The notes: a model not told the origin generated them from the sequence alone. Shown: positions 5,143-25,096, numbered from the stretch's first letter. The stretch is DNA of 37,073 nt from a bacterium (GCA_035763845.1 DASUAK010000036.1:1-37073), one strand, 5' to 3'. Program-made: numbers and translations.

Positions 5143-5810
5143 GCGAGCAGTCGGTGCTGCAGATCCTGGCGCTGCGCATCGACCCCGTGTGGCGGCGCCT
5201 GGGCGCGGAGGAGCGCGCCGTCGACCGCGACGCCTTCGCCCGGGCGATCCGGCAGACGGGCGCCGTCACGACGCTCGTCTATTCGACGGTCGGGCTGCGC
5301 GCGGACGCCGATCTCGTCCTGGTGCGCACGGCCGCCGCCCTGGACGATCTGGAGGAGAACGCCGCCCGGCTGCTGCGCAGCGGGATGGGGCGGTTCGCCT
5401 CGGCCTCCCACGCCTTCACCGGCCTCATCCGCTCGTCCCGGTACGTGAAGAAGCCGGGGGCGCAGGAGCAGGCGCTGATCAGCGGCGAGCGCGCCCGCTA
5501 CCTGATCGTCTATCCGTTCACCAAGACCACGGAGTGGTATCTGCTGGGGCGCGAAGCCCGGCAGGGGATGATGAACGAGCATATCCGGATCGGCCACGAC
5601 TTTCCCCAGGTGCGCCAGCTCCTGGCCTACTCCACCGGTCTGGACGACCAGGAGTTCATCGTGGCCTATGAGACCGACGATCTCCCCGCGTTTCAGGACC
5701 TGGTCACGGCGCTGCGCGAGACCGACGCGCGGCCGTACACGCTGCGGGACCAGCCCATCCTCACCGCCATCTACCGACCGCTCGATGAAGCGCTGGATCT
5801 GCTGGGGTGA
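5124..5810 (+). CDS. hemQ: coproheme decarboxylase (HemQ/ChdC, chlorite-dismutase-like family)
   Basis: Internal ATG at 5124 in the 4527..5810 frame. [17 protein letters not shown]...[16 protein letters not shown]...[10 protein letters not shown] matches the HemQ/Cld-like fold pattern. About 228 aa. Sits inside the haem operon with hemH and hemY. The exact start is uncertain (a GTG at 5139 is also possible). Confidence 0.85.
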
Positions 5811-6943
5811 CGCGAGGTGACGCGATGCAGACGATGAGACCCACGGTGGCCGCCGGCGGCGGATACCGCTTCGACCGGGCGCCGCGCATGATCTATTGGG
5901 AGATGACGCGGGCCTGCGCCCTGGCCTGCCGGCACTGCCGCGCCGAGGCGATCCCGCTGCGCGATCCGCTCGAGCTGCGCACGGACGAGGCGCTGCGCAT
6001 GCTGGCGCAGCTGCGCGCGTTCGGCGATCCGGTGCCGCACCTGGTGTGCACCGGCGGAGATCCGCTGCAGCGGCCGGACCTCCTCGAGATCGTGCGGGAG
6101 GGCACGCGGATCGGGCTCCCTGTCTCGCTCGCGCCCAGCGCGACCGCGAACCTCACGCGCGAGATCATTGAGGCGCTGCGGGACGCCGGGATGCAGAGCA
6201 TGTCCCTGAGCGTCGACGGCTCCACCGCCGCGCGCCACGATGACTTCCGCGGCGTCGAGGGGACGTACGACACGACGATCCAGGCCGCGCGGTGGGCCCG
6301 CGAGGCGGGGGTCCCCCTGCAGCTCAACACCCTCGTCACCGGCGATTCGATCGAGGACCTCCCGGCCATGTACCATCTGGCCCGGACGCTGGACATCATG
6401 CGTTGGAGCCTGTTCTTTCTCGTGGCGGTTGGAAGGGGAACCACTCTTCCGGAGCTCATGCCGCTCGAGGCAGAGAGTGTCATGCAGTGGCTGGCGGAGC
6501 GCTCGATGGAGGCGCCGTTCGCCATCGCAGCCACGGAGGCCCCACACTTTCGCCGGGTTGCCATTGGGCTGATGCACGACCGCCGGATGGCCGGCGGGGC
6601 CATCCGGCGAACGCCCATCGGCCGCGGCTTCGGCATCCGCGACGGCAACGGCGTGATGTTCATCTCGCACCGCGGGGAGGTCACCCCGGCGGGGTTCCTC
6701 GGCGTCGTCACCGGCAGCGTGCGCGAGCGGTCACCGGTGGAGCTGTACCGGACGCACGAGGTCTTCGTCGCGCTGCGCGATCCGGCGCGCCTGCGGGGCA
6801 AGTGCGGCCGCTGCGAGTTCCGGGAGCTGTGCGGCGGCTCGCGGGCGCGCGCCTTCGCGCGGACCGGAGACTACCTCGAGAGCGATCCGCTCTGCGCCTA
6901 CGAGCCGGGGGGACAGACGCCGGCGGTGGAGCTGCAGGCATGA
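5807..6943 (+). CDS. radical SAM/SPASM-domain protein, AhbD/NirJ-like (function in haem metabolism inferred)
   Basis: CALACRHC (CxxxCxxC) radical SAM cluster motif in YWEMTRACALACRHC. GGDPLQRPD motif and RWSLFFLVAVGRG. C-terminal SPASM-type Cys cluster CGRCEFRELCGGSRARAF...DPLCAY. Alternative start at ATG 5825, preceded by GAGGTGA. Confidence 0.8.
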   Translation: MTRGDAMQTMRPTVAAGGGYRFDRAPRMIYWEMTRACALACRHCRAEAIPLRDPLELRTDEALRMLAQLRAFGDPVPHLVCTGGDPLQRPDLLEIVREGTRIGLPVSLAPSATANLTREIIEALRDAGMQSMSLSVDGSTAARHDDFRGVEGTYDTTIQAARWAREAGVPLQLNTLVTGDSIEDLPAMYHLARTLDIMRWSLFFLVAVGRGTTLPELMPLEAESVMQWLAERSMEAPFAIAATEAPHFRRVAIGLMHDRRMAGGAIRRTPIGRGFGIRDGNGVMFISHRGEVTPAGFLGVVTGSVRERSPVELYRTHEVFVALRDPARLRGKCGRCEFRELCGGSRARAFARTGDYLESDPLCAYEPGGQTPAVELQA

Positions 6944-7974
6944 GTCGCTTCCTGCGGGCCTGCCGCCGCGAGCCGGTCGACCGGACACCGGTATGGTTCA
7001 TGCGCCAGGCCGGACGCTCTCAGCCCGAGTATCGCGCGCTGCGCGAGCGTTACACGCTGCTCGAGATCTGCGCCCGCAGCGATCTCGTGGCGGAGGTTAC
7101 CCTGCGTCCGGTCGAGCAGCTCGGCGTGGACGCGGCCATCCTCTTCGCCGACATCACGGTCCCGCTGCTGGGGATGGGGGTGGCGTTCGAGCTGCACGAC
7201 GGGACCGGCCCGCGCATCCACCGCCCCGTGCGGGCGCAGGCAGACGTCGCCGCCCTGCGGCCGTTCGAGCCCGAGGCCACGATCGACGCACTGCTCGGCG
7301 GGGTCGCTCTGGTCCGCCGCGCGAGCCCCGTGCCCCTGATCGGCTTCGCGGGCGCGCCGTTCACCCTGGGGAGCTATCTCATCGAAGGCGGACCGTCGCG
7401 GGAGTTCCTCCAGACGAAGGCGATGATGCGGGGATCCCCGGCGCTGTGGCAGGCGCTGATGGAGCGCCTCACCGAGGCGACCATCGCGTATCTCAGCAGG
7501 CAGGTCGCCGCGGGCGTGCAGGCCGTCCAGCTGTTCGACAGCTGGGTAGGGTGCCTGAGTCCGGCCGATTACCGCGCGTCGGTCGCGCCGTATATGCGCC
7601 GTATCTTCGCCTCGCTGCGTCCCCTGGGCGTGCCGGCCATCCACTTCGGCACCGGCACCGCGGGGCTGCTGCGGGAGATGGCGGAGGCGGGGGGGGATGT
7701 CATCGGCGTGGACTGGCGCGTCGGCCTGGCCGAGGCCTGGGCGCAGATCGGCGACCGCGCCATCCAGGGCAATCTCGATCCGTCGGCGCTCCTGGGGCCC
7801 TCCGGCGTCGTACGCTCGCAGGCCGCCGCCGTCCTGGCGCAGGCCGCGGGACGCGCGGGCCACATCTTCAACCTCGGCCACGGGGTTCTCCCCGACACGC
7901 CGCAAGACCACCTGCACGGGCTCGTCGAGTTCGTGCACAACTACCGGCACGAGGCCGCGGAGGTGCGGGCGTGA
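6940..7974 (+). CDS. hemE: uroporphyrinogen decarboxylase
   Basis: ATG at 6940 forms an ATGA overlap with the upstream stop. MSRFLRACRREPVDRTPVWFMRQAGRSQPEYR is the canonical HemE N-terminus. The ORF-track start at 6292 is a spurious extension. Confidence 0.95.
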   Translation: MSRFLRACRREPVDRTPVWFMRQAGRSQPEYRALRERYTLLEICARSDLVAEVTLRPVEQLGVDAAILFADITVPLLGMGVAFELHDGTGPRIHRPVRAQADVAALRPFEPEATIDALLGGVALVRRASPVPLIGFAGAPFTLGSYLIEGGPSREFLQTKAMMRGSPALWQALMERLTEATIAYLSRQVAAGVQAVQLFDSWVGCLSPADYRASVAPYMRRIFASLRPLGVPAIHFGTGTAGLLREMAEAGGDVIGVDWRVGLAEAWAQIGDRAIQGNLDPSALLGPSGVVRSQAAAVLAQAAGRAGHIFNLGHGVLPDTPQDHLHGLVEFVHNYRHEAAEVRA

Positions 7975-8921
7975 CCGGACGCGGCGTGCTGCTCACCGCC
8001 TACGGCAGTCCGGCCACGCTGGACGACGTCGGATCCTACTTCACCCACATCCGCGGCGGGCGCGCTCCCTCGGCGGAGCAGGTCGAGGAGCTGCGGGAGC
8101 GGTACCGCCGCATCGGGGGCACCTCGCCGCTGCGGGCGGTCACCGCGGCGCAGGCGGACGGCCTCCGCCGCGAGCTGGCCCGGCGCGGGATGGCCCTTCC
8201 CGTCTACGTCGGGATGAAGCACGCGAGTCCATTCATCGCCGACGCGGTCGCCGCGATGGCCCGGGACGGCGTGCGCGAGGGCGTCGTGCTGGCGCTGGCC
8301 CCCCACTACTCGCGGATGAGCATCGCCTCCTACTTCTCGACCGCCGCGGAGGCGGCGTCCGCGCACGGCATCCGGCTGCGCGCGATCGAGTCCTGGCACG
8401 ATCACCCGGGGTTCATCGCCGCGCTGGCGGCGCGGGTGCGGGACGCCCTGGCTCGCTTCGCCGATCCGTCCGCCGTCGAGGTGATCTTCACCGCCCACAG
8501 CCTGCCGGAGCGCATCCTGACCTGGAACGATCCCTATCCCGCTCAGCTGCGTGTCACCGCGGAGCTCGCCGCGCGCGCGGCGAGTGCCGGAACGTGGCGG
8601 TTCGCCTACCAGAGCGCATCGCACACCGGCGAGAAGTGGCTCGGCCCCGATCTGCTCGAGGCGCTGCGCGAGATCGCGCGCTCCGGGCGCCGCGATCTCG
8701 TCGTCTGTCCCATCGGCTTCGTCGCCGACCATCTGGAGGTGCTCTTCGACATCGAGGTCGAGGCCAAGGAGACGGCCTCGGAGCTGGGCCTCCGCCTCGA
8801 GCGCGCCCCGTCCCTGAACGACGGGCCGGACTTCATCGCCGCGCTCGCCGATATCGTGGCCTCGGCGGCGCAGACGGCCGCCGAGCCGCGCGCCGGCGCC
8901 CGCGCGGAGGGACGGTCGTGA
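7971..8921 (+). CDS. hemH: ferrochelatase (coproporphyrin ferrochelatase type, HemH/CpfC)
   Basis: GTG at 7971 forms a GTGA overlap with hemE. GVLLTAYGSPATLDDVGSYFTHIRGG..., FTAHSLPERI and GFVADHLEVLFDIE are ferrochelatase motifs. About 316 aa. Confidence 0.9.
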   Translation: MTGRGVLLTAYGSPATLDDVGSYFTHIRGGRAPSAEQVEELRERYRRIGGTSPLRAVTAAQADGLRRELARRGMALPVYVGMKHASPFIADAVAAMARDGVREGVVLALAPHYSRMSIASYFSTAAEAASAHGIRLRAIESWHDHPGFIAALAARVRDALARFADPSAVEVIFTAHSLPERILTWNDPYPAQLRVTAELAARAASAGTWRFAYQSASHTGEKWLGPDLLEALREIARSGRRDLVVCPIGFVADHLEVLFDIEVEAKETASELGLRLERAPSLNDGPDFIAALADIVASAAQTAAEPRAGARAEGRS

Positions 8922-10375
8922 CCGCCCCCCGCCGGCCCAGCATCGTCGTGATCGGGGCAGGCATCACCGGCCTGACCGCCTCGCGCGTCCTGCGCGAGGC
9001 GCTGGTGCACGGCGGCGCGGGCGAGGTGACGCTGATCGAAGCCGCTCCGCAGCTGGGGGGCAAGATCCTCACCGAGCGGGTCGGCGGCTTCCTGATCGAG
9101 GGGGGTCCGGACTCCTTCCTGACGCTGAAACCGCAGGCGGTGGAGCTGGCGCGCGAGCTGGGCCTCGGTGACCGCCTGGTCGGCACGCTCGACCCGCGGC
9201 ACGTCTTCATCCTGCACCGGGGGCGCCTGCACCCGCTGCCGGAGGGGCTGGCTTCGCTGATCCCGCAGCGCCTCGGCCCCTTCATCCGCAGCCGCCTGTT
9301 CACGCCGTGGGAGAAGGCCCGCTTCGGGTTGGACCTGCTCATCCCGCCGTCGCCCAACGGCACCGACGAGGCGCTCGGAAGCTTCGTGAGGCGGCGGCTC
9401 GGTCAGGCCGCGGTGGAGCGGCTGGCCGGTCCGCTCCTGGCGGGGATCCACGCCGGCGACATCGAGGAGCTGAGCCTGCGCGCGACCTTTCCTGCCCTTG
9501 CCGAGGCCGAGCGCCGCTACGGGAGCCTGACGCGCGCCGTGCTCGCCCGCCGCCGCGCGCCGGCCCGTTCGGGCGGCCGGATCGGAGCAGAGGGGGCATC
9601 GCCGGGCGGGTCGATGTTCATGACGCTGCGGGGCGGTCTCCGGGAGCTGGTGGACCGCGCCGCCGACCTGCCCGGCGTCGCCGTGCGGACGCAGACTGAC
9701 GTTCGGACGATCGAGCGCCGCGGTGAGCGATATCTGGTGCGCGTCGAGGGCGCGGAGGCCATCGAGGCGGACGTGGTCGTGGTCACGGTGCCGGCCAACG
9801 CCGCCGCGGTGGTGCTGCGCGATCTCAATCCGCCCGCCGCGGATCTGGCGGCCACGGTGCCGCACGTCTCCACAGCCGCTGTCGCCTTCGGATTCCGCCG
9901 CGCCGACGTGCGCCATCCGCTTGCCGGCCACGGTTACGTGGTGGGGTCAGGCGAGGGGATGGCGCACACCGCGGCCACGTGGGTCAGCTCGAAGTGGCCC
10001 GACCGCGCCCCCGAGGGCTACGTGCTGCTGCGCTGCTTCACGGGACGGGCCGGAGAGCAGCAGGCCCTGGCGCTGGACGACGGCGCGCTGGCCGAAGCCC
10101 TGCTGGCCGAGGTGACCCCGCTGCTCGGCATCACGGGCGCTCCCGAGCTCACCCGCGTCTATCGCTGGAACGCCGCGATGCCGCAGTATACGCTCGGCCA
10201 TCTCGAGCGCGTCGCGGCGCTGCGCCGGGCCCTCGAAGCGACGCCCGGGATCATCGTCGCCGGAGGGGGGTACGGCGGCGTGGGCCTCCCCGACTGCATC
10301 CGGCAGGGCAGGGAAGCGGCGGCCGAGGCGCTGCGGCTTGCATCCCCGCCCGCGCTGGAGGCGGTGGAGCGATGA
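8918..10375 (+). CDS. hemY: HemY-type FAD oxidase (coproporphyrinogen/protoporphyrinogen oxidase, CgoX)
   Basis: GTG at 8918 forms a GTGA overlap with hemH. IVVIGAGITGLTA is the FAD dinucleotide motif. About 485 aa, and the C-terminal GGYGGVGLPDCIRQG is typical of HemY. Confidence 0.9.
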   Translation: MTAPRRPSIVVIGAGITGLTASRVLREALVHGGAGEVTLIEAAPQLGGKILTERVGGFLIEGGPDSFLTLKPQAVELARELGLGDRLVGTLDPRHVFILHRGRLHPLPEGLASLIPQRLGPFIRSRLFTPWEKARFGLDLLIPPSPNGTDEALGSFVRRRLGQAAVERLAGPLLAGIHAGDIEELSLRATFPALAEAERRYGSLTRAVLARRRAPARSGGRIGAEGASPGGSMFMTLRGGLRELVDRAADLPGVAVRTQTDVRTIERRGERYLVRVEGAEAIEADVVVVTVPANAAAVVLRDLNPPAADLAATVPHVSTAAVAFGFRRADVRHPLAGHGYVVGSGEGMAHTAATWVSSKWPDRAPEGYVLLRCFTGRAGEQQALALDDGALAEALLAEVTPLLGITGAPELTRVYRWNAAMPQYTLGHLERVAALRRALEATPGIIVAGGGYGGVGLPDCIRQGREAAAEALRLASPPALEAVER

Positions 10376-11262
10376 GCCCCCTCCGCCTGCTGCCGCTGGC
10401 CTCGGCCCTCATCACCGTCGCCTTCGTCTGGCTCGTCTTCCGCCGCTACGCCTCGCGCGGCGGCCGTCACCTGCTGGTGTGGGGCATCGGCCTGCTGCTC
10501 TTCGGAACGGCCAGCCTGGCGGAGGCGGTCGCCGCGTCCGTGTGGCATCCGATGGTCTTCCGCCTGTGGTACCTCGCGGGTGCCGGGCTGAGCGCGGCCT
10601 GGATCGGTCAGGGGACGGTGTACCTGCTGGCCGGCGTGCGTCTGCCGAACGTCCTGCTCTCCCTGGTGCTGGGCTACACGGCCGCCGCGGCGCTCTTCCT
10701 CCTCCTCGCCCGCATCGGGTTGGGCGTGGCCATCGCGGGCGTACTCATCGCCTTCCACGGTCCGATCTTCGCGGGGTTGTTCCACCGCCTGGTCGTCCGC
10801 CGCTGGGATCCGCTGCGCCTCACCGGCGTGCTCACCGGTCTGCTGCTGGCGGGGAGCCTGTTCGCCACCGCGGTCATCCTCGCCACCCCGGTGGACGGGT
10901 CGCGCTTCGATCCCGACCGGCCGCTGAGCGCGCAGTACCGGGAGATCCTGCCGCCGGGCGCGGCGGTGCGGAAGCTGACGCCGGCGTTCAACATCTACGG
11001 CACGATCACGCTGGTCGGGGGCGCCCTGTACTCGGCCTGGCTGCTGGGACGCCGGGAGGTGCCGGCGCCGCGCGTGGCGGGCAACGTCCTCATCGCCGCG
11101 GGGGCCTTCGTGATCGCGTCCGCGAGCGCCATGGTCCGCCTGGGGATCGGCGACTTCCTCTATGCCGCGGAGGCGGTCGCCGCGGCCTTGATGTTCGGCG
11201 GCTTCCTGCTGGCCACGGGCGCCGCGCCCGCCACCTCATCCGCGGAGGCGGCGCGGGCATGA
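10372..11262 (+). CDS. hypothetical polytopic membrane protein (about 8 predicted TM helices)
   Basis: ATG at 10372 forms an ATGA overlap with the hemY stop. 296 aa made of repeated hydrophobic 20-aa stretches separated by short R/K/P loops. I recognise no family motif. Confidence 0.6.
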   Translation: MSPLRLLPLASALITVAFVWLVFRRYASRGGRHLLVWGIGLLLFGTASLAEAVAASVWHPMVFRLWYLAGAGLSAAWIGQGTVYLLAGVRLPNVLLSLVLGYTAAAALFLLLARIGLGVAIAGVLIAFHGPIFAGLFHRLVVRRWDPLRLTGVLTGLLLAGSLFATAVILATPVDGSRFDPDRPLSAQYREILPPGAAVRKLTPAFNIYGTITLVGGALYSAWLLGRREVPAPRVAGNVLIAAGAFVIASASAMVRLGIGDFLYAAEAVAAALMFGGFLLATGAAPATSSAEAARA

Positions 11263-11891
11263 GCGCGCGGGCGGCCTCGGGCCGCGCCCCGCAGTGGATG
11301 ACGCTCGGCGAAGCCTGCGTCTTCCTCGGCGTGGACGCCTCCACGCTGCGGGTCTGGGCGGATGCCGGGCGGGTGCCGGCGTACCGCACGCCCGGGGGGC
11401 ACCGCCGCTTCGACCGCGGCGCGCTGGAGGCCTTCCTGGCCCGCAGCCGCCGCGAGCCGGAGCCCAAGCTGGCTGAGCTCATCGGCCCCCACGCCGCGCG
11501 GCTCGTGCCGGGGGCTCTCGCGCAGATCCAGCGGCAGCGCTGGTACCACGTCCTCGACGCGGCCACGGCGCGGGCGCTGGGCGAGACCTGCCGGGGCTTG
11601 ATGGACGCTCTGGCCGAGTACCTGCGGGGCGGCGCCCGGCGGCAGCGCGCCCTGCGCGCCGGCGAGCAGGCCGGCGAGGACCTGGGAGCCCGCGTCGCCG
11701 CGCTGGGGCTCAACGCCGCGGAGGCTACCGAGGTCTTCCTGTTCTTCAAGGGGATCATCAACGACGCGATCTCGATGCGCCTGCCGCTGTCGCCCGACGG
11801 CAAGGTCCGCTCGCTCCGCCGGATCGACCTCTTCCTCAACCGCGTGCTGCTGCGGATGATGGCCGCCTTCGAGTCCGTCGCGGCGGAATAA
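11259..11891 (+). CDS. HTH DNA-binding protein (MerR/excisionase-type N-terminal HTH plus an all-helical C-terminal domain)
   Basis: ATG at 11259 forms an ATGA overlap with the upstream gene. WMTLGEACVFLGVDASTLRVWADAGRVPAYRTPGGHRRFDRGALEAFL is an excisionase/MerR-family HTH. About 150 aa of helical sequence follow. Stop TAA at 11889-11891. Confidence 0.65.
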   Translation: MSARAASGRAPQWMTLGEACVFLGVDASTLRVWADAGRVPAYRTPGGHRRFDRGALEAFLARSRREPEPKLAELIGPHAARLVPGALAQIQRQRWYHVLDAATARALGETCRGLMDALAEYLRGGARRQRALRAGEQAGEDLGARVAALGLNAAEATEVFLFFKGIINDAISMRLPLSPDGKVRSLRRIDLFLNRVLLRMMAAFESVAAE

Positions 11892-11932: not shown

Positions 11933-12682
11933 GTGTGGGTAGCCGCGCCCATGAGCACGCTCGTCATCATCCCCGTCTTCAATGAAGCGCGCACGCTGGC
12001 CCGGGTGCTGGACCAGGTGCGCGCGAGCGCGCCCGCATCCGACGTCCTGGTCGTCGACGACGGCTCCACCGACGCCTCCCCCGCCATCCTGGCCGGCCGG
12101 AGCGACGTGCGCACCATCCGGCATCCGGCCAACCTGGGCTACGGGCGTTCCCTGATCACGGGGTTCGAGCACGCGGCCGCATGCGGCTACGTGACCGTCG
12201 TGACCATCGACTGCGACGAGCAGCACGAGCCCGCGCGCATCCCCGAGTTCATCGCCGCCTCCGCCGGGACGGACATCGTCTCCGGGAGCCGGTATCTCGA
12301 TCCATCGGTGCCGGGAGATCCCGCCCCGCCGGACCGCGCGCAGCTGAACCGCGAGTTCACGGAGCGCCTGCGCGCGATCACCGGCTATCCCATCACGGAC
12401 GCCTGGTGCGGATTCAAGGCGTACCGGGTCGCCTCGCTGCGGCGGCTCCGGCTCACCGAGCCGAGCTACGGGATGCCCCTGCAGGTGTGGGTGCAGGCCG
12501 CCTACCACGGGCTCGGCGTGCGGGAACTGGCCGTGGCGCGGATCTACAAGAACCCGGAGCGGAAGTTCTGGGGCGGGCTGGACGACATGGCCGCGCGGCG
12601 CGCGTACTACCGGCGCATCCTGGAGGCCGAGGTCGCCCGCTGGCTGCCGCACAAGCTGGACCTGGTCCGGGTGACCCGGTGA
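11933..12682 (+). CDS. family 2 glycosyltransferase (Dpm1/polyprenol-phosphate-sugar-synthase-like, soluble)
   Basis: VIIPVFNEARTLARVLDQV...VLVVDDGSTDAS and TIDCDEQHEP (a DxD-type motif) are GT2 hallmarks. 249 aa from GTG 11933, which has GAGGGAG about 10 nt upstream. Alternative start at ATG 11951. Confidence 0.8.
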   Translation: MWVAAPMSTLVIIPVFNEARTLARVLDQVRASAPASDVLVVDDGSTDASPAILAGRSDVRTIRHPANLGYGRSLITGFEHAAACGYVTVVTIDCDEQHEPARIPEFIAASAGTDIVSGSRYLDPSVPGDPAPPDRAQLNREFTERLRAITGYPITDAWCGFKAYRVASLRRLRLTEPSYGMPLQVWVQAAYHGLGVRELAVARIYKNPERKFWGGLDDMAARRAYYRRILEAEVARWLPHKLDLVRVTR

Positions 12683-13359
12683 TGCGGGTGCTGGCCCTGG
12701 GGCCGCATCCGGACGACGTCGAGATCGGGATGGGCGGGGCCGTGCTGGTCCTGCGGGCGGCGGGCCACGAGGTGGTGGTCTGCGACCTGACCAACGGCGA
12801 GCCGACCCCGATCGGCACGCCGGAGCGGCGGGCGCGCGAGGCCGCCGAGGCCGCGCGGCTGCTCGGCGTCCGGCGCATCACGCTGGAGATGCCCAACCGC
12901 TACCTCGCCGATACAGTGGACAACCGGAACGCCGTGGCCGAGGTCATCCGCGAGGTGCGGCCCGAGCTGCTCTTCGTCCCGTACTGGGAGGACGCCCATC
13001 CCGATCACCGCGCCGCCGCGGCGCTGTGCGAGGCGGCGCGATTCTATGCGAAGTTGACGCGGACGTCGATTCCTGGTGAGCCGTTCTACCCGCGGCGCGT
13101 CATCCACTTCCTGTGCACGCACTACAATCTCCACCTCAAGCCGTCGTTCATCCTCGACATCTCGCCGCACATGGACACGAAGGTCCGGGCGATCGCGGCC
13201 TACGGCTCGCAGTTCGGCCCCGAGCGCGGCAACGAGGAGTTCTTCGAAGACCTGCGCGTCTGGAACCGCTACTACGGTGCTCTGATCCGCACCGCGTACG
13301 GCGAGCCCTTCGTCCTGCGCGAAGAGGTCGGCCTGCGCGGTCTGGATCAGTTCCTCTGA
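12682..13359 (+). CDS. PIG-L/LmbE-family N-acetylglucosaminyl deacetylase (BshB/MshB-like)
   Basis: ATG at 12682 overlaps the upstream TGA by 1 nt. MRVLALGPHPDDVEIGMGGA, CDLTNGE and HPDHRAAA are the PIG-L family metal-binding motifs. 225 aa. Confidence 0.85.
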   Translation: MRVLALGPHPDDVEIGMGGAVLVLRAAGHEVVVCDLTNGEPTPIGTPERRAREAAEAARLLGVRRITLEMPNRYLADTVDNRNAVAEVIREVRPELLFVPYWEDAHPDHRAAAALCEAARFYAKLTRTSIPGEPFYPRRVIHFLCTHYNLHLKPSFILDISPHMDTKVRAIAAYGSQFGPERGNEEFFEDLRVWNRYYGALIRTAYGEPFVLREEVGLRGLDQFL

Positions 13360-13364
13360 TCCCC

Positions 13365-14921
13365 ATGCCGCCCGTCCCCGTGGCCGCGGAGTTCGAGATC
13401 CCGGAGCGCTCCGGGGAGGTGCTGTGCCTGCCGCCCGGCGCCGCCGTCCCCGCAGCGGCGGAGGCCAACCGGCGTGCTCTCGACGCTGCGCCCGTGCGGA
13501 TGGGCGGGATGCCGCTCGCGCAGCTGCGCCGCGAAGCCCGCCGCGACGCGCTCCACGCGGCCAACACCTATGCCGCGGAGCTGGGCCTGCCCGCCTGCGA
13601 CCCGCGCGATCCGCGTCCGCTGATCGGCACGGGCCACCAGCCCTTCCTCTTCCATCCCGGCATCTGGGCGAAGCACCTGCTCGCCGCCCGGCTCACCGAC
13701 TCCGCCGTGGCGCTGAACATGCCGGTGGACTGCGACGCCGCCGAGGACATCGGGGCGGACGCGCCGCACCTCGACGGGGGGCTGAGCATCGTTCACGAGA
13801 CGCTCCTGCGCGCCGATCCCGAGGTGCCCTACGAGGTGATCGCGCCGCCGGCGGAGGACGTCTGGCTGGCCTTCCTGCGCCGCCTCGACGAGCACCTCCA
13901 GACGCTGCCGCATCGCGGCACCCACGACGTCTTCGCGGGATTCGTGGAGCGCACGCGGGGGCTGCGCGCCCCGGACATCGGTTCCTTCCTCACGCTGGCC
14001 CGGCGCCGCCATGAGGGCTCCACACCGTACGGGGAACTGCCCGTATCGCGGCTCGCCGCGGGCGGTCCCTTCCGGCTCTTCACGCTCCACCTCATCAGCG
14101 AGGCGGAGCGCTTCGCCGGCGTCTACAACGCGCAGCTGAACGCCTATCGCGAGCGCCAGAACATCCGCACGCCGGCCCAGCCGTTCCCGGACCTCGACCG
14201 CGCGGGCGATCGCGTCGAGCTGCCGTTCTGGGTGATCCACGGCGGCCGGCGGCGTCCGATGTACGCGGCGCACCAGGGGAGCCGGTACCGGCTCTGGGCG
14301 GGTGATGCCGAGCTCGCCGTGATCGCGGGAGGGGAGCCGGAGGAGCTCGCGCCCTTTGCGATCCGGCCCAGGGCCCTCGCCCTCACCGCCTTCACCCGCC
14401 TGTGCGTGGTGGACCTGTTCATCCACGGAGTGGGCGGCGGGCGCTACGACCGGGTCACGGACGGTGTCATCGCGGAGTTCTTCGGGATCGCTCCGCCGGT
14501 CTACGCGGTCGCGTCGGCGACGCTGCACCTGCCCCTGAGCGAGTTCGACCCGAGCGAGGAGCGCGGCACGCTGCAGCGCCGCCTCCTCGCGCTGCTGCAC
14601 AATCCGGAGCGGACGCTGCCCGAGCCTACGAGCGAGCAGCGCGTGTGGATCGAGCAGAAGTGGACCCTGATCCGCCGCCTCGAGGGCAATACCCTGACAC
14701 GCCGGGAGCGGCGCGAAGCGACGCAGCGCATCCGGGAGATCAACGAACGTCTGAGCGGCGCGCTCGCGCAGGAGCGGGGCGCTCTGGAGCACCGTCTGGC
14801 CGCCCTCGGCGAGGTCAGGGCGGCCTCCGCGGCCGCCGCGCACCGCGGCTATCCGTTCTGCTTCTTCCCGCCGCGCTCGGTCGAGGCCCTGGTGGACGCC
14901 ATGATGACGGAGCGCCGATGA
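13365..14921 (+). CDS. hypothetical 518-aa protein, possible distant BshC-like (cysteine-adding enzyme family) protein
   Basis: ATG at 13365, 5 nt after the deacetylase stop. IGTGHQPFLFHPGIWAKHLL resembles the BshC GGQQAGLLTGPLYTIHK segment, and a downstream acidic VDCDAAED compares with BshC GEDHD. The size and a C-terminal coiled-coil-like, Arg/Glu-rich region also fit BshC. The assignment is by eye only. Confidence 0.55.
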   Translation: MPPVPVAAEFEIPERSGEVLCLPPGAAVPAAAEANRRALDAAPVRMGGMPLAQLRREARRDALHAANTYAAELGLPACDPRDPRPLIGTGHQPFLFHPGIWAKHLLAARLTDSAVALNMPVDCDAAEDIGADAPHLDGGLSIVHETLLRADPEVPYEVIAPPAEDVWLAFLRRLDEHLQTLPHRGTHDVFAGFVERTRGLRAPDIGSFLTLARRRHEGSTPYGELPVSRLAAGGPFRLFTLHLISEAERFAGVYNAQLNAYRERQNIRTPAQPFPDLDRAGDRVELPFWVIHGGRRRPMYAAHQGSRYRLWAGDAELAVIAGGEPEELAPFAIRPRALALTAFTRLCVVDLFIHGVGGGRYDRVTDGVIAEFFGIAPPVYAVASATLHLPLSEFDPSEERGTLQRRLLALLHNPERTLPEPTSEQRVWIEQKWTLIRRLEGNTLTRRERREATQRIREINERLSGALAQERGALEHRLAALGEVRAASAAAAHRGYPFCFFPPRSVEALVDAMMTERR

Positions 14922-15616
14922 GCGCGCCGGCCCGCCCGCTGCTCGACGTCCGGGCCGTCTCAAAGTCCTATGCGGGACGCGCGGCGGTGCGCGACGTCTC
15001 GCTGTCGGTGGAGACGGGAGGGGTGCTCGCGCTGCTCGGTCCGAACGGCGCGGGCAAGAGCACCCTGCTCCGGATCGCCGCGGGCATCGCCCGGCCCGAC
15101 GCGGGCGAGGTCCGCATCGGGGACCGGCCGGTGCGAGAGGCCGCGGCCCGTCGCCGGATCGGCGCTGCGGGGCACCTGTCCTTCCTCTATGGATATCTCA
15201 CGGTGGAGGAGAATCTCGCTCTCTACGCGCGGCTCTACGGTGTCGGTCGGGAGCGGGTCGAGGACGCGCTGGCGGCCTTCGCACTGCTCCCGCACCGGAC
15301 GAAGCCGGTGCGGGAACTCTCCCGCGGCCTGGTGCAGCGGGCGAGCCTGGCGCGCGCCCTGCTGCACGATCCGGCCGTCCTGCTCCTGGACGAGCCCTTC
15401 ACGGGGCTGGACGCGGAAGCGTCCGCCGCCTGCCGCAGGCGGATCCGCACGCTGCGCGACCGCGGATGCGCGATCGTGATGGCCACGCATGCCTGGGCAG
15501 ACGCGCAGGAGCTGGCGGATGAGGCCGTCGTGCTAGCGGGGGGACGGCTGGCACTGCGGGAAGCCGCCTCGGCGCTGGACCTTGCGCGCGTGGCCGCACT
15601 CTACCGGACCGCATGA
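14918..15616 (+). CDS. ccmA: haem exporter ABC ATPase CcmA
   Basis: ATG at 14918 forms an ATGA overlap with the upstream stop. Walker A GPNGAGKST, signature LSRGLVQRASLARAL, Walker B LLLDEP. Followed by ccmB and ccmC. Confidence 0.85.
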   Translation: MSAPARPLLDVRAVSKSYAGRAAVRDVSLSVETGGVLALLGPNGAGKSTLLRIAAGIARPDAGEVRIGDRPVREAAARRRIGAAGHLSFLYGYLTVEENLALYARLYGVGRERVEDALAAFALLPHRTKPVRELSRGLVQRASLARALLHDPAVLLLDEPFTGLDAEASAACRRRIRTLRDRGCAIVMATHAWADAQELADEAVVLAGGRLALREAASALDLARVAALYRTA

Positions 15617-16260
15617 GCACCTTCTGGATCCTGCTGCGCAAGGACCTCGCCGTCGAGGGCAGGGGACGGGAGATGCTTCCGGCGATGGCGCTGCTCGCCC
15701 TGCTGCTGCTCGCTCTCACAGGCGCCTCCGGCCTCCGCCTGGACGGCGCGCCCGCCATCCTCTGGATCACAGTGGCGGTGGCCGCGGCGAGCGGGCTGGG
15801 GCGCAGCTTCCTCCGGGAGACCGACCAGGACCAGCTGCAGGGCCTGCACCTGGCCGCGGTCGATCCCGCCGTGCTCTACCTCGCGAAGGCCGCGGCGAAC
15901 TTCCTCATCGTCGCCGTGGTGGAGCTCGTCGCCGTGGCGGCGATCTTCGTCTTCTTCGATGCGCCGCCGCCGGCGGACGCGGGCGCGCTCGCCGCGGTGC
16001 TCCTCCTCGGCACCGCGGCCCTGGTCAGTCTGGGGACGCTGCTGGGCGGGATGCTCGCCGCCGCGCGCATGCGCGAGGCGCTGCTGCCCCTGCTGCTGCT
16101 CCCGCTCGGGGCGCCGGCCGTGATGGCGGCCTCCGGGGCGACGGCGCGGCTCCTCACCTCCGGCGGCTCCGCCGCCGGCGAGATCCGGCTTCTGCTCGCC
16201 TTCACCCTGTTGTTCGTCGCGGCCTCGGTGCTCGTCTTCGAGCACGTCATCGAGGAGTAG
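15613..16260 (+). CDS. ccmB: haem exporter membrane protein CcmB
   Basis: 215 aa and 6-TM-like. N-terminus LLRKDLAVEGRGREML is typical of CcmB. ATGA overlap with ccmA. Confidence 0.85.
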   Translation: MSTFWILLRKDLAVEGRGREMLPAMALLALLLLALTGASGLRLDGAPAILWITVAVAAASGLGRSFLRETDQDQLQGLHLAAVDPAVLYLAKAAANFLIVAVVELVAVAAIFVFFDAPPPADAGALAAVLLLGTAALVSLGTLLGGMLAAARMREALLPLLLLPLGAPAVMAASGATARLLTSGGSAAGEIRLLLAFTLLFVAASVLVFEHVIEE

Positions 16261-16281: not shown

Positions 16282-16944
16282 ATGATTCCGGGGGTTATGC
16301 GGATGCTGCTGGTGCTGGCTGCCGTCGCCGTTCCCGTCGGCCTCGCGCTCGCGCTGTTCGTCGCTCCGGTGGAAGCGTTCCAGGGTGAGCCGTACCGCAT
16401 CCTGTACGTCCACGTGCCGAGCGTCGCCACAGCCTACCTCGCCTTCACGGTGACGTTCGCGGCGAGCGTGGCCTACCTCATCACGCGCCGCGGACGCTTC
16501 GACCGGTTGGCCGGCGCCTCCGCGGAGATCGGGCAGGTGTTCCTCACCGTCGTGCTGCTGACGGGGCCGATCTGGGGGAAGCCGGTGTGGGGCGTGTGGT
16601 GGACCTGGGACGCGCGCCTGACCACGGCGCTGATCCTCTGGTTCATCTTCGCGGGGTACCTCATGCTGCGCGCCTGGTCCGGTGCGCAGGGGGCGAGGGC
16701 GGCCGCGGTCGTCGCCATCGTCGGATTCCTCGACGTGCCGCTGATCCACTGGTCCGCTGTGCTGCTGCGGACCCTCCATCCCCGGCCCACGGTCTTCCGG
16801 CCCGAGGGGCCGGCGCTGCCGGGGTCGATGCTCGTGGTGCTCCTCTTCAACATCGCGGCCTTCGTCCTCACCTATCTCGCCTTCCTCACGGTGCGCGTCC
16901 GCCAGGAGGCGGCCCGGGAGCAGCTGTCGCAGGCCGGGCCATGA
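16282..16944 (+). CDS. ccmC: haem exporter / haem-handling protein CcmC
   Basis: YVHVPSVATAYL and the Trp-rich WWD motif WGKPVWGVWWTWDARLTT. 220 aa. Confidence 0.9.
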   Translation: MIPGVMRMLLVLAAVAVPVGLALALFVAPVEAFQGEPYRILYVHVPSVATAYLAFTVTFAASVAYLITRRGRFDRLAGASAEIGQVFLTVVLLTGPIWGKPVWGVWWTWDARLTTALILWFIFAGYLMLRAWSGAQGARAAAVVAIVGFLDVPLIHWSAVLLRTLHPRPTVFRPEGPALPGSMLVVLLFNIAAFVLTYLAFLTVRVRQEAAREQLSQAGP

Positions 16945-17054
16945 CGTACGTCGCGGCGGCGTATCTCGTCACGGTCGGCATCCTCGGAGCGTACGCGCTC
17001 TCGCTCTGGCTCCGGCAGCGGTCGCTGCGCCGCCCGCGCGGGGACGGCCGGTGA
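16941..17054 (+). CDS. ccmD: small single-TM protein, CcmD-like
   Basis: ATG at 16941 forms an ATGA overlap with ccmC. The 37 aa MTYVAAAYLVTVGILGAYALSLWLRQRSLRR are one TM helix plus a basic tail. Position between ccmC and ccmE matches ccmD. The following gene starts with a GTGA overlap. Confidence 0.55.
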   Translation: MTYVAAAYLVTVGILGAYALSLWLRQRSLRRPRGDGR

Positions 17055-17440
17055 GGACCTCGCGGAAGCTGGTCGTCGGGCTGGCCGTGATCGTCGCGGC
17101 GATCGGCGCCGTCGCGTACAGCGGCATCCGCTCCGCCGCCGTGTACTACCTCACGCCCACCGAGTTCGCGGGCCGCGCCGACCTGCGATCGGCGCAGGTG
17201 CGGCTCGCGGGCACGGTGGAGGCGGGCACCGTCCGCCGCGACGGCGGGCGGGTCACCGGCTTCCGTCTCAGCGACGGCACCACGGCGATCGACGTCCGCT
17301 ACGGCGGTCCGCTGCCCGACCTCTTCGCGGAGGGCCGCGAGGTCCTCGTCGAAGGGCGCCTCCGGGACGGCGCGCTCGATGCGACGAGGGTCATCACCAC
17401 CCACCCCACCGAATACAAGGAAGGATCTCCCCGGCCGTGA
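17051..17440 (+). CDS. ccmE: cytochrome c haem chaperone CcmE
   Basis: 129 aa. N-terminal TM anchor, AVYYLTPTEF, an OB-fold-like body, and the C-terminal HxxxY haem-binding motif (THPTEY). Confidence 0.85.
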   Translation: MRTSRKLVVGLAVIVAAIGAVAYSGIRSAAVYYLTPTEFAGRADLRSAQVRLAGTVEAGTVRRDGGRVTGFRLSDGTTAIDVRYGGPLPDLFAEGREVLVEGRLRDGALDATRVITTHPTEYKEGSPRP

Positions 17441-19437
17441 CGGCCCTTGGAAGCTTCGCCCTGTACGCCGCACTCGTCGTAACGCTCTACGGGCTGGCCG
17501 CCGGGATCCTGGGGCTGCGGCGACGCGATCCGGTGCTGCTCGAGTCGTCACGCCGCGCCGTCGCGGGATGGGCGGGGTGCATCGCCCTGGCTGCGGCCGC
17601 GCTCCTGTACGCGCTGGTCACGCGGGACTTCTCCATCCGGTTCGTCGCGGAGACGACCAGAGCCGACCTTCCGCTGCTCTATGCCGTGACGGCCTTCTGG
17701 GGCGGGCACGCCGGCTCGCTGCTGCTGTGGGCCCTGGTCCTCGCGCTCTACGGCGCGGTCGCCGCCTCATCCGGCCTGCGGCGCCTGCCGGCGGCGCCCA
17801 TCGTCTTCCTGGTGCTGCTCGGCACCGCGGCGTTCTTCACGCTGATCCTCGCCGCCTCCGGCAACCCCTTCGAGGCGCTGCGCATCCCGCCGCCGGACGG
17901 TCGGGGGCTCAACCCGCTCCTCCGCAATCCGTGGATGGCCGCGCATCCACCCGCGCTGTACCTCGGGTTCGTGGGGACGACGGTGCCGTTCGCTCTGGCT
18001 GTCGCGGCGCTCGCCTCCGGCGATCCGGACGGCGCCACCCTCCGCGCGGCGCGTCCCTGGGTCCGTCTCGGCTGGCTCTTCCTCACGGTGGGGCTGCTCT
18101 TCGGCGCGAAGTGGTCGTACGTCGTGCTGGGGTGGGGCGGCTATTGGGCCTGGGATCCTGTCGAGAACGCGGCGCTGATGCCCTGGCTGACCGGCGCGGC
18201 GTACCTGCACTCGGTCCAGGTCTTCGAGCGCGACGGCACGCTCCGCCGCTGGACCGCCGGCCTGCTGATGCTCTCCTTCGCGCTGGCCATCCTCGGCACG
18301 TTCCTGACGCGCAGCGGCGTGCTCAGCTCGGTCCACGCCTTCGCCAACTCGAGCGTCGGGCCGTACTTCGTGGTGTTCCTCGCGTTTTTGGTCGCCGGAT
18401 CGGCCGCCCTGCTCCTCCGACGGCGCCGGGATGCCGGCGCCGCGGATGCCGGCGCCGGCGGGCAGATCGATTCCCTGCTCAGCCGCGAGGCCGCCTTCCT
18501 CGCCAACAACGTGCTGCTCGTCACCGCCGCGGGCGCGGTGCTGCTCGGCACGCTCTTCCCCATCCTGGCCGAGGTCGTGACGGGCGATCGCATCAACGTC
18601 GGTCCCCCGTACTTCAACCAGGTGTTGCTGCCCGTCGTCGTCCTGCTGCTGCTCCTCATGGCGGTCGGCCCGCTGCTGTCCTGGCGCCGCTCCGACCCGC
18701 GCGAGATGGGCGTGCTGCTGGCCGCGCCCGGGGCGCTCGGTGCGCTGGCCGCCCTAGGGGGGGCGGCTCTGGGTATCCGCCATCCGGCTGCACTGCTCAT
18801 CGGGGCCCTCTGCGTCTTCACCGCGGCCGCGACGGTGGTGGAGGCCGGCCGCGGCGCGGAGGTCCGCCGGCGGCGCGGTGATGCCCTGCCGGTGGCGCTG
18901 GTCCGGGTCGCCGCCCGGGCGCGGACGCGCTACGGGGGCTACCTCGTGCACCTCGGGCTCCTCATCATGCTTGCCGGCATCACGGGGTCTTCCGTCTTCA
19001 CGACGCAGACACAGACCGCCCTTCGGCCCGGCGAGCGCGTGCGCCTCGGTCGCTACGAGGTGCGTTACGATGAGGTCAGCGCCGTCGAGGGAGCCGGCCT
19101 CACGGTGACGGCGGCGGCGCTCACCGCCTTCGACGGGCGGGGCGCGGTGTCGCTCGAGGCGCGGCACGTGCACCACCGCGCGCAGGATGCGATCACGGCC
19201 GAGGTGGCGATCCACAGCACGTGGCGCGACGACTTGTACGTGGTGCTGATCGGGTTGTCCGGCGACCGTCGCGCGACGTTCCGCATCCTCCTGAACCCCA
19301 TGGTCGCCTGGCTGTGGGCGGGGGCGGCGCTCATGGTCGCCGGCGGGACGATCGCGGCGCTCCCGGCCCGCCGCCGGGTGTCGCCGGGCGTCCTGGAGGA
19401 CGCCCGGCAGAGCGCGCAGCCGGAGTTGGTCAGATGA
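17437..19437 (+). CDS. ccmF: cytochrome c haem lyase subunit CcmF
   Basis: 666 aa and polytopic. WWD motif WGGYWAWDPVENAALMPWL. GTGA overlap with ccmE. Confidence 0.95.
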   Translation: MTALGSFALYAALVVTLYGLAAGILGLRRRDPVLLESSRRAVAGWAGCIALAAAALLYALVTRDFSIRFVAETTRADLPLLYAVTAFWGGHAGSLLLWALVLALYGAVAASSGLRRLPAAPIVFLVLLGTAAFFTLILAASGNPFEALRIPPPDGRGLNPLLRNPWMAAHPPALYLGFVGTTVPFALAVAALASGDPDGATLRAARPWVRLGWLFLTVGLLFGAKWSYVVLGWGGYWAWDPVENAALMPWLTGAAYLHSVQVFERDGTLRRWTAGLLMLSFALAILGTFLTRSGVLSSVHAFANSSVGPYFVVFLAFLVAGSAALLLRRRRDAGAADAGAGGQIDSLLSREAAFLANNVLLVTAAGAVLLGTLFPILAEVVTGDRINVGPPYFNQVLLPVVVLLLLLMAVGPLLSWRRSDPREMGVLLAAPGALGALAALGGAALGIRHPAALLIGALCVFTAAATVVEAGRGAEVRRRRGDALPVALVRVAARARTRYGGYLVHLGLLIMLAGITGSSVFTTQTQTALRPGERVRLGRYEVRYDEVSAVEGAGLTVTAAALTAFDGRGAVSLEARHVHHRAQDAITAEVAIHSTWRDDLYVVLIGLSGDRRATFRILLNPMVAWLWAGAALMVAGGTIAALPARRRVSPGVLEDARQSAQPELVR

Positions 19438-20093
19438 GGTCGATGCTTGTCGCCATTGTCATTGCGCTCGCGCCGATCGCTGCAGCTGCGGCGCCATCGC
19501 CGCCGGCACCGCCGGGGGTGGACATCGGCCTCCTCCTGCTCGCCGTCGACGCGAAGCGCGATCATCTGCGCGTCTCCGAAGCGCTGCGGCTGAGCAACAC
19601 CGGTCCGGCCCGGACGCTCGAGCTGCGCGTCCCGCTGCCGGAAGGGGCCGCGTATCTCGCCGTGCATCGCGGGATCGAGCGGTGGCTGCGCACCGCCGGC
19701 GGGTTCACCGCGGTCCTGCGCGTGCCCGCGGGCATTTCCGAGGTGGCGTACAGCTACGCGCTGCCGAGCGGACGCACCGCGGTGATGATCCGCTCCTTCC
19801 CGCTGCGCGTGCAGCGGCTGGAGGTCGTAGCGCGCGGGCGCGGGGTGGGGCTCGAGCTCGACGGCGGCGGGCCCGTCGACGCCGTTCTCCTGGGCGCCGA
19901 AACACTGCCGCGGTGGGAGGTCCGGGCGCTGCCGGCGGGCGAGCCGGTCACGATCCTGCTCGATCGTCTCCCCGTTTCGCATCCGTGGCTCCCCGCCGCG
20001 GGCGCGTCCGGGATCGCCGTGGTCCTGGGGACAGGGCTGATCAGGCACCTCCGCCGTGGCCCGCCGCCGGGGGAGGAGACCTCCAGCCGGTGA
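19434..20093 (+). CDS. hypothetical exported protein with C-terminal TM anchor (no Cys)
   Basis: ATG at 19434 forms an ATGA overlap with ccmF. Signal-like N-terminus MRSMLVAIVIALAPIAAAAA, then a beta-rich body, then a C-terminal hydrophobic helix plus RHLRRG. No CxxC and no recognisable family. Confidence 0.55.
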   Translation: MRSMLVAIVIALAPIAAAAAPSPPAPPGVDIGLLLLAVDAKRDHLRVSEALRLSNTGPARTLELRVPLPEGAAYLAVHRGIERWLRTAGGFTAVLRVPAGISEVAYSYALPSGRTAVMIRSFPLRVQRLEVVARGRGVGLELDGGGPVDAVLLGAETLPRWEVRALPAGEPVTILLDRLPVSHPWLPAAGASGIAVVLGTGLIRHLRRGPPPGEETSSR

Positions 20094-23139: not shown

Positions 23140-23332
23140 CGCCTACGCGCTGGGCATCGTGCTGCTGTCAGCGCTCGCCCTGCTGTTCGCGGTGGGGATC
23201 GTCTACGGCGAGATCGGCGACCGCTGGTTCTTCGGCGGCGGCATGATCGGAGCGCTGCTGCTGGCCTACTCCTTTATCGTCCTGTTCCTGCGGAAGTTGG
23301 GGATCATCGGGCCACGGAAGGCGGAGCGATGA
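23132..23332 (+). CDS. hypothetical small membrane protein (2 TM)
   Basis: ATG at 23132 overlaps the previous ORF by 8 nt. 66 aa with two clear TM helices (ALGIVLLSALALLFAVGIVY, MIGALLLAYSFIVLFL). Its stop overlaps the next start (ATGA). Confidence 0.45.
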   Translation: MRSAYALGIVLLSALALLFAVGIVYGEIGDRWFFGGGMIGALLLAYSFIVLFLRKLGIIGPRKAER

Positions 23333-24992: not shown

Positions 24993-25096
24993 AGCGGCTG
25001 CCCCCCAAGGTCATCGCGGCCTACGTCCTTTACTACATCCTCTGGTTCCTGCTGCTGACGTTCGTGGCCTCATTCGGTTTGATCGCCGAGACCTGA
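24989..25096 (+). CDS. possible 35-aa single-TM peptide
   Basis: GTG at 24989 forms a GTGA overlap with the upstream stop. VKRLPPKVIAAYVLYYILWFLLLTFVASFGLIAET is a basic N-terminus plus one TM helix. Supported only by coupling and hydrophobicity. Confidence 0.3.
   Translation: MKRLPPKVIAAYVLYYILWFLLLTFVASFGLIAET

Follow-up and report, generated by a model that had tools for sequence, protein, structure and literature searches.

The locus considered here raises the question of what is made by three adjacent genes, encoding a family 2 glycosyltransferase (GT2), a PIG-L/LmbE-type deacetylase and a 518-residue protein, termed protein X, which lie between haem biosynthesis genes and cytochrome c maturation (Ccm) genes in a 37,073-nucleotide (nt) stretch of bacterial DNA (GCA_035763845.1, DASUAK010000036.1:1-37073). 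This whole stretch, referred to as the window, has a G+C content of ~73% and carries nearly every gene on the + strand. The original prediction was that the trio follows the three-step logic of low-molecular-weight thiol biosynthesis, and this stands in part: a BshB1-like deacetylase, a BshC-like fold of X and a glycosyltransferase of the GT2 rather than the GT4 type all speak for it, while by sequence X falls outside the BshC family. The best explanation is a self-contained three-step pathway with the chemical logic of bacillithiol biosynthesis, but with different first and last enzymes. For its specific form, a variant of the bacillithiol pathway yielding a cysteinyl-hexosamine on another aglycone, we consider the chances to be about even. 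Public annotation names the deacetylase alone of the trio; our literature searches found no description of the X family or of a link between bacillithiol and Ccm.

Gene calling recovers all three reading frames where they had been placed, on the + strand and together spanning 11933-14921:

11933-12682, + strand: GT2 glycosyltransferase, 249 residues, candidate for step 1 (PF00535, E value 7e-27)
12682-13359, + strand: PIG-L/LmbE deacetylase, 225 residues, candidate for step 2 (PF02585, E value 1.5e-25)
13365-14921, + strand: protein X, 518 residues, candidate for step 3; unnamed family, predicted BshC-like fold (AlphaFold2 and Foldseek)

The GT2 stop and the deacetylase start have one base in common (TGATG), the deacetylase and X genes are separated by 5 nt, and the claimed coupling of X to ccmA is seen in the sequence as an ATGA overlap of stop and start at 14918-14921; no terminator-like site was found in 11933-14921. 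The three genes are more than chance neighbours: they lie side by side at 81 of 85 related loci, the remainder being accounted for by truncated contigs or a missed reading frame, and X itself is strongly conserved.

The deacetylase, regarded as clear from the outset, carries HPDD at residues 9-12 and HPDH at residues 106-109, belongs to PF02585 and reaches 205 bits with TIGR04001, the NCBIfam equivalog model of BshB1, above the trusted cut-off of 182.5; the deacetylase of a distant diderm relative scores 190 bits on the same model. On other models the window protein scores 36.7 bits (BshB2), 27 bits (MshB, cut-off 224) and 25.7 bits (Mca, cut-off 277). Orthologues in related metagenome-assembled genomes (MAGs) are named "bacillithiol biosynthesis deacetylase BshB1" by PGAP/NCBI, and the nearest solved relatives among PDB sequences (120-132 bits) are T. 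thermophilus TT1542, B. cereus BC1534 (BshB) and S. aureus BshB. The metal ligands H9, D12 and H109 and the general base D11 are retained. Previous work on BshB has identified Arg53, Arg109 and His110 (BC1534 numbering) as substrate-contact residues required for turnover of N-acetylglucosamine (GlcNAc)-malate, with Arg109 affecting substrate binding and, by docking, contacting GlcNAc-malate (PMC4101496). The equivalents of Arg53 (R73) and His110 (H106) are kept in the window enzyme, but the Arg109 position is Ala105, giving DAHPDH (nt 12991-13008) in place of the DRHPDH of all three solved BshB1-type proteins. Among 82 trio-linked deacetylases from other loci, this position is Ala in 80, Ser in two and Arg in none, so the substrate is probably not GlcNAc-malate. 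The trio deacetylases are a distinct BshB1-like subfamily, which, to judge from this substitution, most likely sees a different aglycone.

The window protein X matches no Pfam or NCBIfam family at E values ≤ 0.1, and every one of its 441 close homologues is named "hypothetical". An exhaustive profile search yields 3,703 representative clusters (50% identity) at E ≤ 1e-3, including 1,938 at E ≤ 1e-30. The family is strongly conserved, with 74 invariant columns in 39 sequences of 45-76% identity, and its loop motifs (TGHQPxLFHPGxWxK, VDxD, RTxAQPFPDL, ELPFW, HGxGGxRYDxxTD, HNPxR and RxYP) occur in the window protein as follows:

13629-13673, + strand: TGHQPFLFHPGIWAK, residues 89-103, followed by VDCDAAED
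13725-13736, + strand: VDCD
14166-14195, + strand: RTPAQPFPDL
14217-14231, + strand: ELPFW
14424-14462, + strand: HGVGGGRYDRVTD
14598-14612, + strand: HNPER
14844-14867, + strand: RGYPFCFF

In the manner of an enzyme, X has its invariant residues gathered in loop motifs where the strands of the Rossmann fold end, and not in the coiled coil.

An AlphaFold2 model of X made without templates (mean predicted local distance difference test score, pLDDT, 91.9) was compared by Foldseek with 350,542 PDB chains. It matches B. subtilis BshC (4WBD) over its full length, with an E value of 3.4e-11, probability 1.0, template modelling (TM) scores of 0.53/0.51 and 12% identity over 537 columns; 4WBD is the sole match at E ≤ 0.001, the runner-up having an E value of 0.04. 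The predicted fold comprises a Rossmann-like N-terminal part and a helical, coiled-coil-like C-terminal part, of which the last ~120 residues are all-helical. The original prediction had likened the third protein to BshC in size and in a coiled-coil-like C terminus, proposing a Foldseek comparison as a check, and the modelled structure agrees on both counts.

Membership of X in the BshC family by sequence is not borne out. Searches of 61 X-family members with PF10079, PF24850 and the NCBIfam BshC models gave no match at E ≤ 10, whereas the sequence of B. subtilis BshC (identical to that of 4WBD), used as a positive control, scored 465 bits on PF10079 and 156 bits on PF24850. No match was found by phmmer or profile search of X against PDB sequences, and HMMER comparison of a BshC profile with X sequences, and the reverse, gave noise-level scores no better than those of GT2 decoys. 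Alignment by hhalign of the 61 X sequences with 23 BshC sequences, the latter from Bacillaceae only, which weakens the test, scored 25.5 (E value 0.04), scarcely above reversed, unrelated and block-shuffled controls (18.1-24.4). With Pfam, NCBIfam, phmmer and HMMER null and hhalign near its controls, the attempt to prove X a BshC homologue from sequence failed; the relation is structural only. The hhalign alignment is colinear along the whole length, and pairs with BshC the same motifs that had been singled out beforehand, i.e. TGHQPFLFHPGIWAK and the acidic motif: TGHQP..HPGxWxK of X is aligned with GGQQAGLLTGPLYTIHK of BshC, VDxD with EDHD, FIHGxGGxxYD with FIAGPGEixYW, and R494 with the arginine of QERIW (QER504IW). 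In the AlphaFold2 model, His97-Pro98-Gly99 of X lies between the first Rossmann strand (86-91) and the helix 98-112, which we take to be the place where class I aminoacyl-tRNA-synthetase-type enzymes have their HIGH nucleotide-binding motif. X is thus modelled with a BshC-like fold and probably has related ligase chemistry, but is outside the BshC sequence family.

GT2 enzymes are an inverting family with a GT-A fold. The window enzyme is devoid of membrane-spanning segments and has the motifs DDGSTD (nt 12053-12073), DCDEQH (12209-12226), SGSRY (12281-12295) and TDAWCGFKAY (12395-12424), and its assignment as GT2 and not GT4 is upheld by its match to PF00535, by the lack of any BshA/GT4 match and by PDB and Foldseek neighbours that are polyprenyl-phosphate transferases; annotation of the window revealed no GT4 gene. 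Its best NCBIfam matches are PpgS (polyprenyl-phospho-GalNAc synthase), dolichyl-phosphate hexose transferase, AglJ, ArnC and PgfS, with scores of 40-99 bits that are far under the family cut-offs of 325-529. PpgS also ranks first for the distant diderm (71 bits) and Planctomycete (99 bits) GT2 proteins, nearly the full model being covered. Against PDB sequences the enzyme matches ArnC (E value 1e-10) and DPMS (3e-10), and Foldseek with its AlphaFold2 model (pLDDT 91) places ArnC (1.6e-14), DPMS and GtrB (to 1e-10) first, with the soluble glucosyl-3-phosphoglycerate synthase GpgS close behind (2e-10). Because its nearest characterised relatives all glycosylate polyprenyl phosphate, the acceptor may be such a lipid phosphate, or else a small phosphorylated or hydroxy compound; the acceptor could be either polyprenyl phosphate or a small molecule, with polyprenyl-phosphate transferases ranking first and soluble GpgS near.

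In the pathway that we favour, the GT2 would transfer an N-acetylhexosamine (HexNAc), most likely GlcNAc from UDP-GlcNAc, to an acceptor other than malate, with inversion of configuration; a HexNAc-type GT2 would supply the acetamido sugar that the downstream deacetylase requires. The BshB1-like zinc deacetylase would then remove the N-acetyl group, exposing the 2-amino group, to which X, as a very distant BshC-fold enzyme, would join an activated amino acid. Cysteine is the most likely candidate for the latter, since the sole characterised protein of this fold adds cysteine. The product would be a cysteinyl-hexosamine thiol akin to bacillithiol and mycothiol, with another aglycone and, as expected from an inverting transferase, probably a beta linkage. 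Gene order and coupling, the assignments to family and fold, the residue exchange in the deacetylase and the conservation of the module and its surroundings are established; which sugar, acceptor and amino acid are used, and whether cytochrome c maturation is served at all, we infer from these, and the thiol nature of the product from the predicted fold of X alone.

The alternative that survives best, though we consider it unlikely, is that the trio makes a lipid-linked aminosugar and no thiol, i.e. that the GT2 forms a polyprenyl-phosphate-HexNAc, which is deacetylated and then re-acylated by X with a carboxylate other than cysteine (another amino acid or an organic acid). The product would then be a donor for, or component of, an envelope glycoconjugate, and the haem/ccm context a mere co-expression of membrane functions. 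The GT2 argues for this, in that its five best NCBIfam matches are all polyprenyl-phosphate transferases, as are both significant PDB sequence matches and the 23 best Foldseek matches, and in that its orthologues in all 81 loci are short (231-268 residues) and have no membrane segment or anchor, as with PpgS (226-position model). PIG-L, the enzyme giving its name to the deacetylase family, acts on lipid-linked GlcNAc (PMC4101496), and the acid added by X is not indicated by any evidence. By contrast, soluble GpgS is nearly equal as a structural match of the GT2, the deacetylase is nearest to the soluble-substrate BshB1 group and not to lipid-substrate PIG-L, and the only characterised protein with the fold of X adds cysteine. 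Nor is an Arn-like flippase or GT-C transferase present beside the trio in any annotated context, i.e. within 8-10 kb in loci L001, L002, L004, L006, L078, L084, L086, L088 and L089 (related loci are designated by L numbers), though such genes may lie elsewhere in the genomes.

It seems very improbable that the product is ordinary bacillithiol (Cys-GlcN-malate), made with a non-orthologous or strongly diverged GT2 and X in the places of BshA and BshC. The score of the deacetylase above the BshB1 cut-off and its annotation as BshB1, together with the BshC fold and size of X, are in keeping with this possibility, and bacillithiol genes have been reported far outside Firmicutes (PMC6282198). However, GT2 enzymes invert configuration, whereas bacillithiol is alpha-linked through the retaining GT4 enzyme BshA (PMC5790435), and the window has no GT4 gene. 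The arginine needed for GlcNAc-malate turnover in BshB (PMC4101496) is, as above, replaced in 82 of 82 trio-linked deacetylases, and the identity between X and BshC is only ~12%.

How the trio is distributed bears on both its coherence and its relation to haem. A scan of species-representative genomes found relatives of X in at least 297 genomes; the best 79 loci were read over ~20 kb around each, and genes were mapped by phmmer across 85 loci. The hosts are CSP1-3/Sysuimicrobiota, which NCBI labels "Armatimonadota" (Ca. Fervidifonticultor, Tepidifontimicrobium and Calidihabitans), "Bacillati bacterium ANGP1", Bacillota-labelled MAGs, Coriobacteriia and Anaerosomatales. In the CSP1-3, ANGP1 and Bacillota-like loci (L001-L064), hem, ccm or cytochrome bc genes flank the trio in 60 of 64 cases, the four exceptions being contigs of 3-7 kb; X identity is 38-72% in the scanned loci L007-L064. 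The arrangements vary: hem - trio - ccmA-F (window, L002); trio - ccmA-F without hem genes (L004, L005); trio convergent with an inverted ccmA-F-G-H (L006 and others); trio - Bcp peroxiredoxin - cytochrome c - Rieske protein - cytochrome b (L001 and seven more); and hem - trio - ccmAB only, followed by unrelated genes (L041, L045 and L060, all Bacillota-labelled MAGs). In loci of the last type, CcmA scores 133 bits on TIGR01189 (cut-off 131.6) and is followed by a CcmB-like permease, and ccmC, ccmE and ccmF are absent from the next ~8 kb of L041, L045 and L060, where pseudopilin-like genes are found instead. The linkage of X to CcmAB may be the tightest. The Bcp/PrxQ-type thiol peroxidase (motif FYPKDNTPGCTTEAC) lies directly 3' of X in eight loci, including L024-L027, L029 and L031; in L001 its gene (9549-10007) starts a few bases past the X stop. 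It provides a redox hint in favour of the thiol pathway.

Away from these lineages, the trio of Coriobacteriia type annotated in detail (L078, L084) has housekeeping neighbours (EF-G, cyclophilin, PlsY and a lipid kinase), as would be expected for a general metabolite, and a further diderm lineage (L089) has the full trio beside glycolysis genes. A disulfide reductase gene in L089 was considered as a thiol-disulfide partner and rejected, its product being an ordinary dihydrolipoyl dehydrogenase (TIGR01350, 474 bits versus a cut-off of 408.8). In L086, L087 and L088 (Planctomycetota and a 5-Mb contig), GT2 and X remain neighbours, with 0-116 nt between their genes, and X is ~50 residues longer. 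GT2 plus X may be the smallest conserved unit. An autonomous module is thus formed by the trio, or by the GT2-X pair at the least; its attachment to haem and cytochrome genes is lineage-specific yet kept through rearrangements.

That there is no common pathway, the synteny being merely inherited and X being structural or regulatory, e.g. a coiled-coil scaffold for haem/cytochrome assembly with a likeness to BshC in fold only, is highly doubtful: no enzyme is detectably similar to X in sequence, the C-terminal third of X resembles a coiled coil and the loci examined come mostly from a few related candidate phyla, but the order and adjacency of the trio are kept while the surroundings change completely, the GT2-X pair persists in Planctomycetota, the invariant residues of X are placed as in an enzyme, and the order of transferase, deacetylase and ligase is chemically coherent.

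With respect to cytochrome c maturation, the co-directional and tightly packed string of hem genes, trio, ccm genes and cytochrome bc genes looks like co-expression with the respiratory haem machinery. A product of the trio might supply reducing power to Ccm; in favour of such a link are the hem/ccm/cytochrome bc synteny at 60 of 64 loci, the fact that the trio is translationally coupled to ccmA, and the absence of ccmG and ccmH from the window. The original prediction had noted that the ccm cluster lacks thiol-redox components. This is so for the window, where CcmG and CcmH queries gave no match and no thioredoxin-fold Pfam match was found in the annotated genes, but not for relatives with the inverted ccm cluster, which carry ccmG and ccmH beside X. 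A more elaborate proposal is that GlcNAc is placed on polyprenyl phosphate to give a membrane-anchored cysteinyl-glucosamine, which a CcmAB-type transporter would flip or export as a thiol reductant for haem or apocytochrome outside the cytoplasm. We consider this improbable as it stands; ccmAB does remain next to X also at loci that have no adjoining ccmC, ccmE and ccmF. If correct, CcmAB-exported cysteinyl-glucosamine would be a dedicated small-molecule reductant for Ccm and a transported substrate for CcmAB in these lineages.

Several observations weigh against the proposed thiol pathway, or against its tie to Ccm. Since the GT2 is inverting and has lipid-phosphate relatives, the intermediate may be quite unlike GlcNAc-malate, which is an odd fit to a BshB1-like deacetylase. 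The connection of X to BshC stands on one predicted structure and is without support from sequence methods. The reaction of BshC itself has never been reconstituted, and its activated substrate is not known (PMC5790435), so the label "cysteine ligase" transfers only weakly to X. No PIG-L gene is found near GT2-X in L086, L087 or L088. Haem/ccm neighbours, as mapped by phmmer, are absent at 21 of 21 Coriobacteriia-type loci, and hem, ccm and cytochrome bc neighbours are absent in the two Planctomycetota contexts examined (three loci). These contexts, and the ccmG and ccmH genes adjoining the trio in some relatives, imply that the module is not specific to Ccm.

The genes flanking the trio in the window are as follows:

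16-10375, + strand: haem block hemA, hemL, hemC, hemD, hemB, chdC, radical-SAM gene, hemE, hemH, hemY (Pfam, every gene)
10372-11262, + strand: 296-residue multi-pass membrane protein, no Pfam/NCBIfam match; start overlaps the hemY stop
11259-11891, + strand: MerR/excisionase-type helix-turn-helix (HTH) regulator, 210 residues (PF12728, 4e-13; PF00376, 7e-8), with a weakly RsbRD_N-like C-terminal part
14918-15616, + strand: ccmA (TIGR01189, 136 bits, above the cut-off of 131.6)
15613-16260, + strand: ccmB (TIGR01190, weak, 31 bits; PF03379 in relatives), forming an ATP-binding cassette (ABC) transporter with ccmA
16282-16944, + strand: ccmC (reading frame; Pfam of the L002 orthologue; phmmer synteny)
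16941-17054, + strand: ccmD (reading frame; synteny)
17051-17440, + strand: ccmE (motif HPTEY; Pfam of the L002 orthologue)
17437-19437, + strand: ccmF (Pfam of the L002 orthologue; phmmer synteny)
19434-20093, + strand: 219-residue protein, no Pfam family, with N-terminal signal-like and C-terminal hydrophobic segments
23329-24537, + strand: cytochrome b domain fused to a two-[4Fe-4S] ferredoxin domain
24566-25096, + strand: 176-residue reading frame, no Pfam match of its own; the L001 homologue is FlpD-like (PF02662)

The upstream haem pathway is complete and of the coproporphyrin-dependent type, and many related loci have this block ahead of the trio. Within it, chdC (PF06778; 5124-5810, + strand) overlaps the radical-SAM gene (5807-6943, + strand), which may offer another route, independent of oxygen, through this step or an adjacent one. 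The gene for the 296-residue membrane protein, which could be a haem/porphyrin-related transporter or a partner of the trio, overlaps the regulator start at its end and has homologues in the same position in L002, L010, L012, L019, L033 and L039. The HTH regulator is immediately 5' of the GT2 gene in the window and in many CSP1-3/ANGP1 loci, and heads the string hemA-C-D-B-L - trio - ccmAB in the Bacillota-like L041, L045, L056, L060 and L063; it may exert shared control of the entire haem/trio/ccm string. At many related loci the 219-residue protein is likewise encoded right behind ccmF, a place in which ccmG/ccmH could have been anticipated. Further downstream are genes for a dihaem cytochrome c, a Rieske protein and cytochrome b, then a cupredoxin and a polyprenyl synthase. 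The pair formed by the cytochrome b-ferredoxin fusion and the reading frame with the FlpD-like homologue is kept after the cytochrome bc genes in many related loci, as an unusual respiratory module.

As to wider significance, the annotation "BshB1" for one gene, with its partners unnamed, wrongly suggests a fragmentary bacillithiol pathway. To our knowledge, the main thiol has not been determined in CSP1-3/Sysuimicrobiota, ANGP1, uncultured Coriobacteriia or Planctomycetota (in the last of which the GT2-X pair alone is seen). X, as a very distant BshC relative with a predicted HIGH-like element, would offer a second way into BshC chemistry, never reconstituted in the time since BshC was discovered. 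That the trio is linked time and again, in differing arrangements, to genes for haem synthesis, CcmAB(CDEF) and cytochrome bc leads to the hypothesis that small thiols are tied to cytochrome c biogenesis where CcmG/CcmH are missing or encoded elsewhere, and a product that was lipid-anchored, or exported for cytochrome c maturation, would bring the trio closer to a new kind of system.

For that last possibility, CydDC of E. coli offers a precedent joining small thiols, an ABC transporter and haem-protein assembly, in that export of low-molecular-weight thiols is tied to respiratory cytochrome assembly (PMC4785604, PMC4132815), as here a putative thiol pathway is coupled to CcmAB; the substrate of CydDC is disputed, haem being argued for instead (PMC10374445). 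The architecture of CydDC is unrelated to that of CcmAB, and transport of the trio product is purely hypothetical.

ArnD is a NodB-type hydrolase, and the trio hydrolase differs from it in being a PIG-L enzyme. The systems of PpgS (polyprenyl-phosphate-GalNAc, mycobacteria) and ArnC/ArnD (undecaprenyl-phosphate-Ara4FN, with deformylation) otherwise resemble the trio in pairing a short GT2, for the loading of an N-acylated aminosugar, with a hydrolase that then frees the amine, and PpgS, ArnC, DPMS and GtrB are the proteins most similar to the trio GT2 in sequence and fold. The latter nevertheless scores far under the cut-offs of those families, and the trio has a third, BshC-like ligase.

Mycothiol biosynthesis (MshA, MshA2, MshB, MshC, MshD) shares with the proposed pathway a GlcNAc glycoside, PIG-L/LmbE deacetylation and ligation of cysteine by a class I synthetase-type Rossmann enzyme. 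By contrast, MshA is a GT4 enzyme where the trio uses a GT2, the trio deacetylase scores only 26-27 bits on MshB/Mca models with cut-offs of 224-277, and MshC is a recognisable paralogue of CysRS, which is an insignificant fold match for X (E value 1.2); no MshD-like acetyltransferase is present in the window.

Bacillithiol biosynthesis (BshA, BshB1/B2 and BshC; Bacillus and Staphylococcus) differs from the trio in starting with the retaining GT4 enzyme BshA, where the trio has an inverting GT2 of the polyprenyl-phosphate-transferase type; in the Arg109 of BshB, which the trio deacetylase lacks; and in BshC, which has TGP at the position of the HPG element of X, the latter lying outside PF10079, PF24850 and the NCBIfam BshC models. 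The trio also forms one operon beside hem and ccm genes, whereas in B. subtilis bshA and bshB1 are apart from bshC (PMC5790435). The likeness is in the sequence of steps, i.e. GlcNAc transfer, zinc-dependent N-deacetylation and amide ligation by a protein with the BshC fold, and extends to a deacetylase that passes the BshB1 model and to a modelled X that can be matched to the BshC structure from end to end, the helical C-terminal domain included. If its product is a thiol, the trio would represent a third glucosamine-based low-molecular-weight thiol pathway, after those to mycothiol and bacillithiol.

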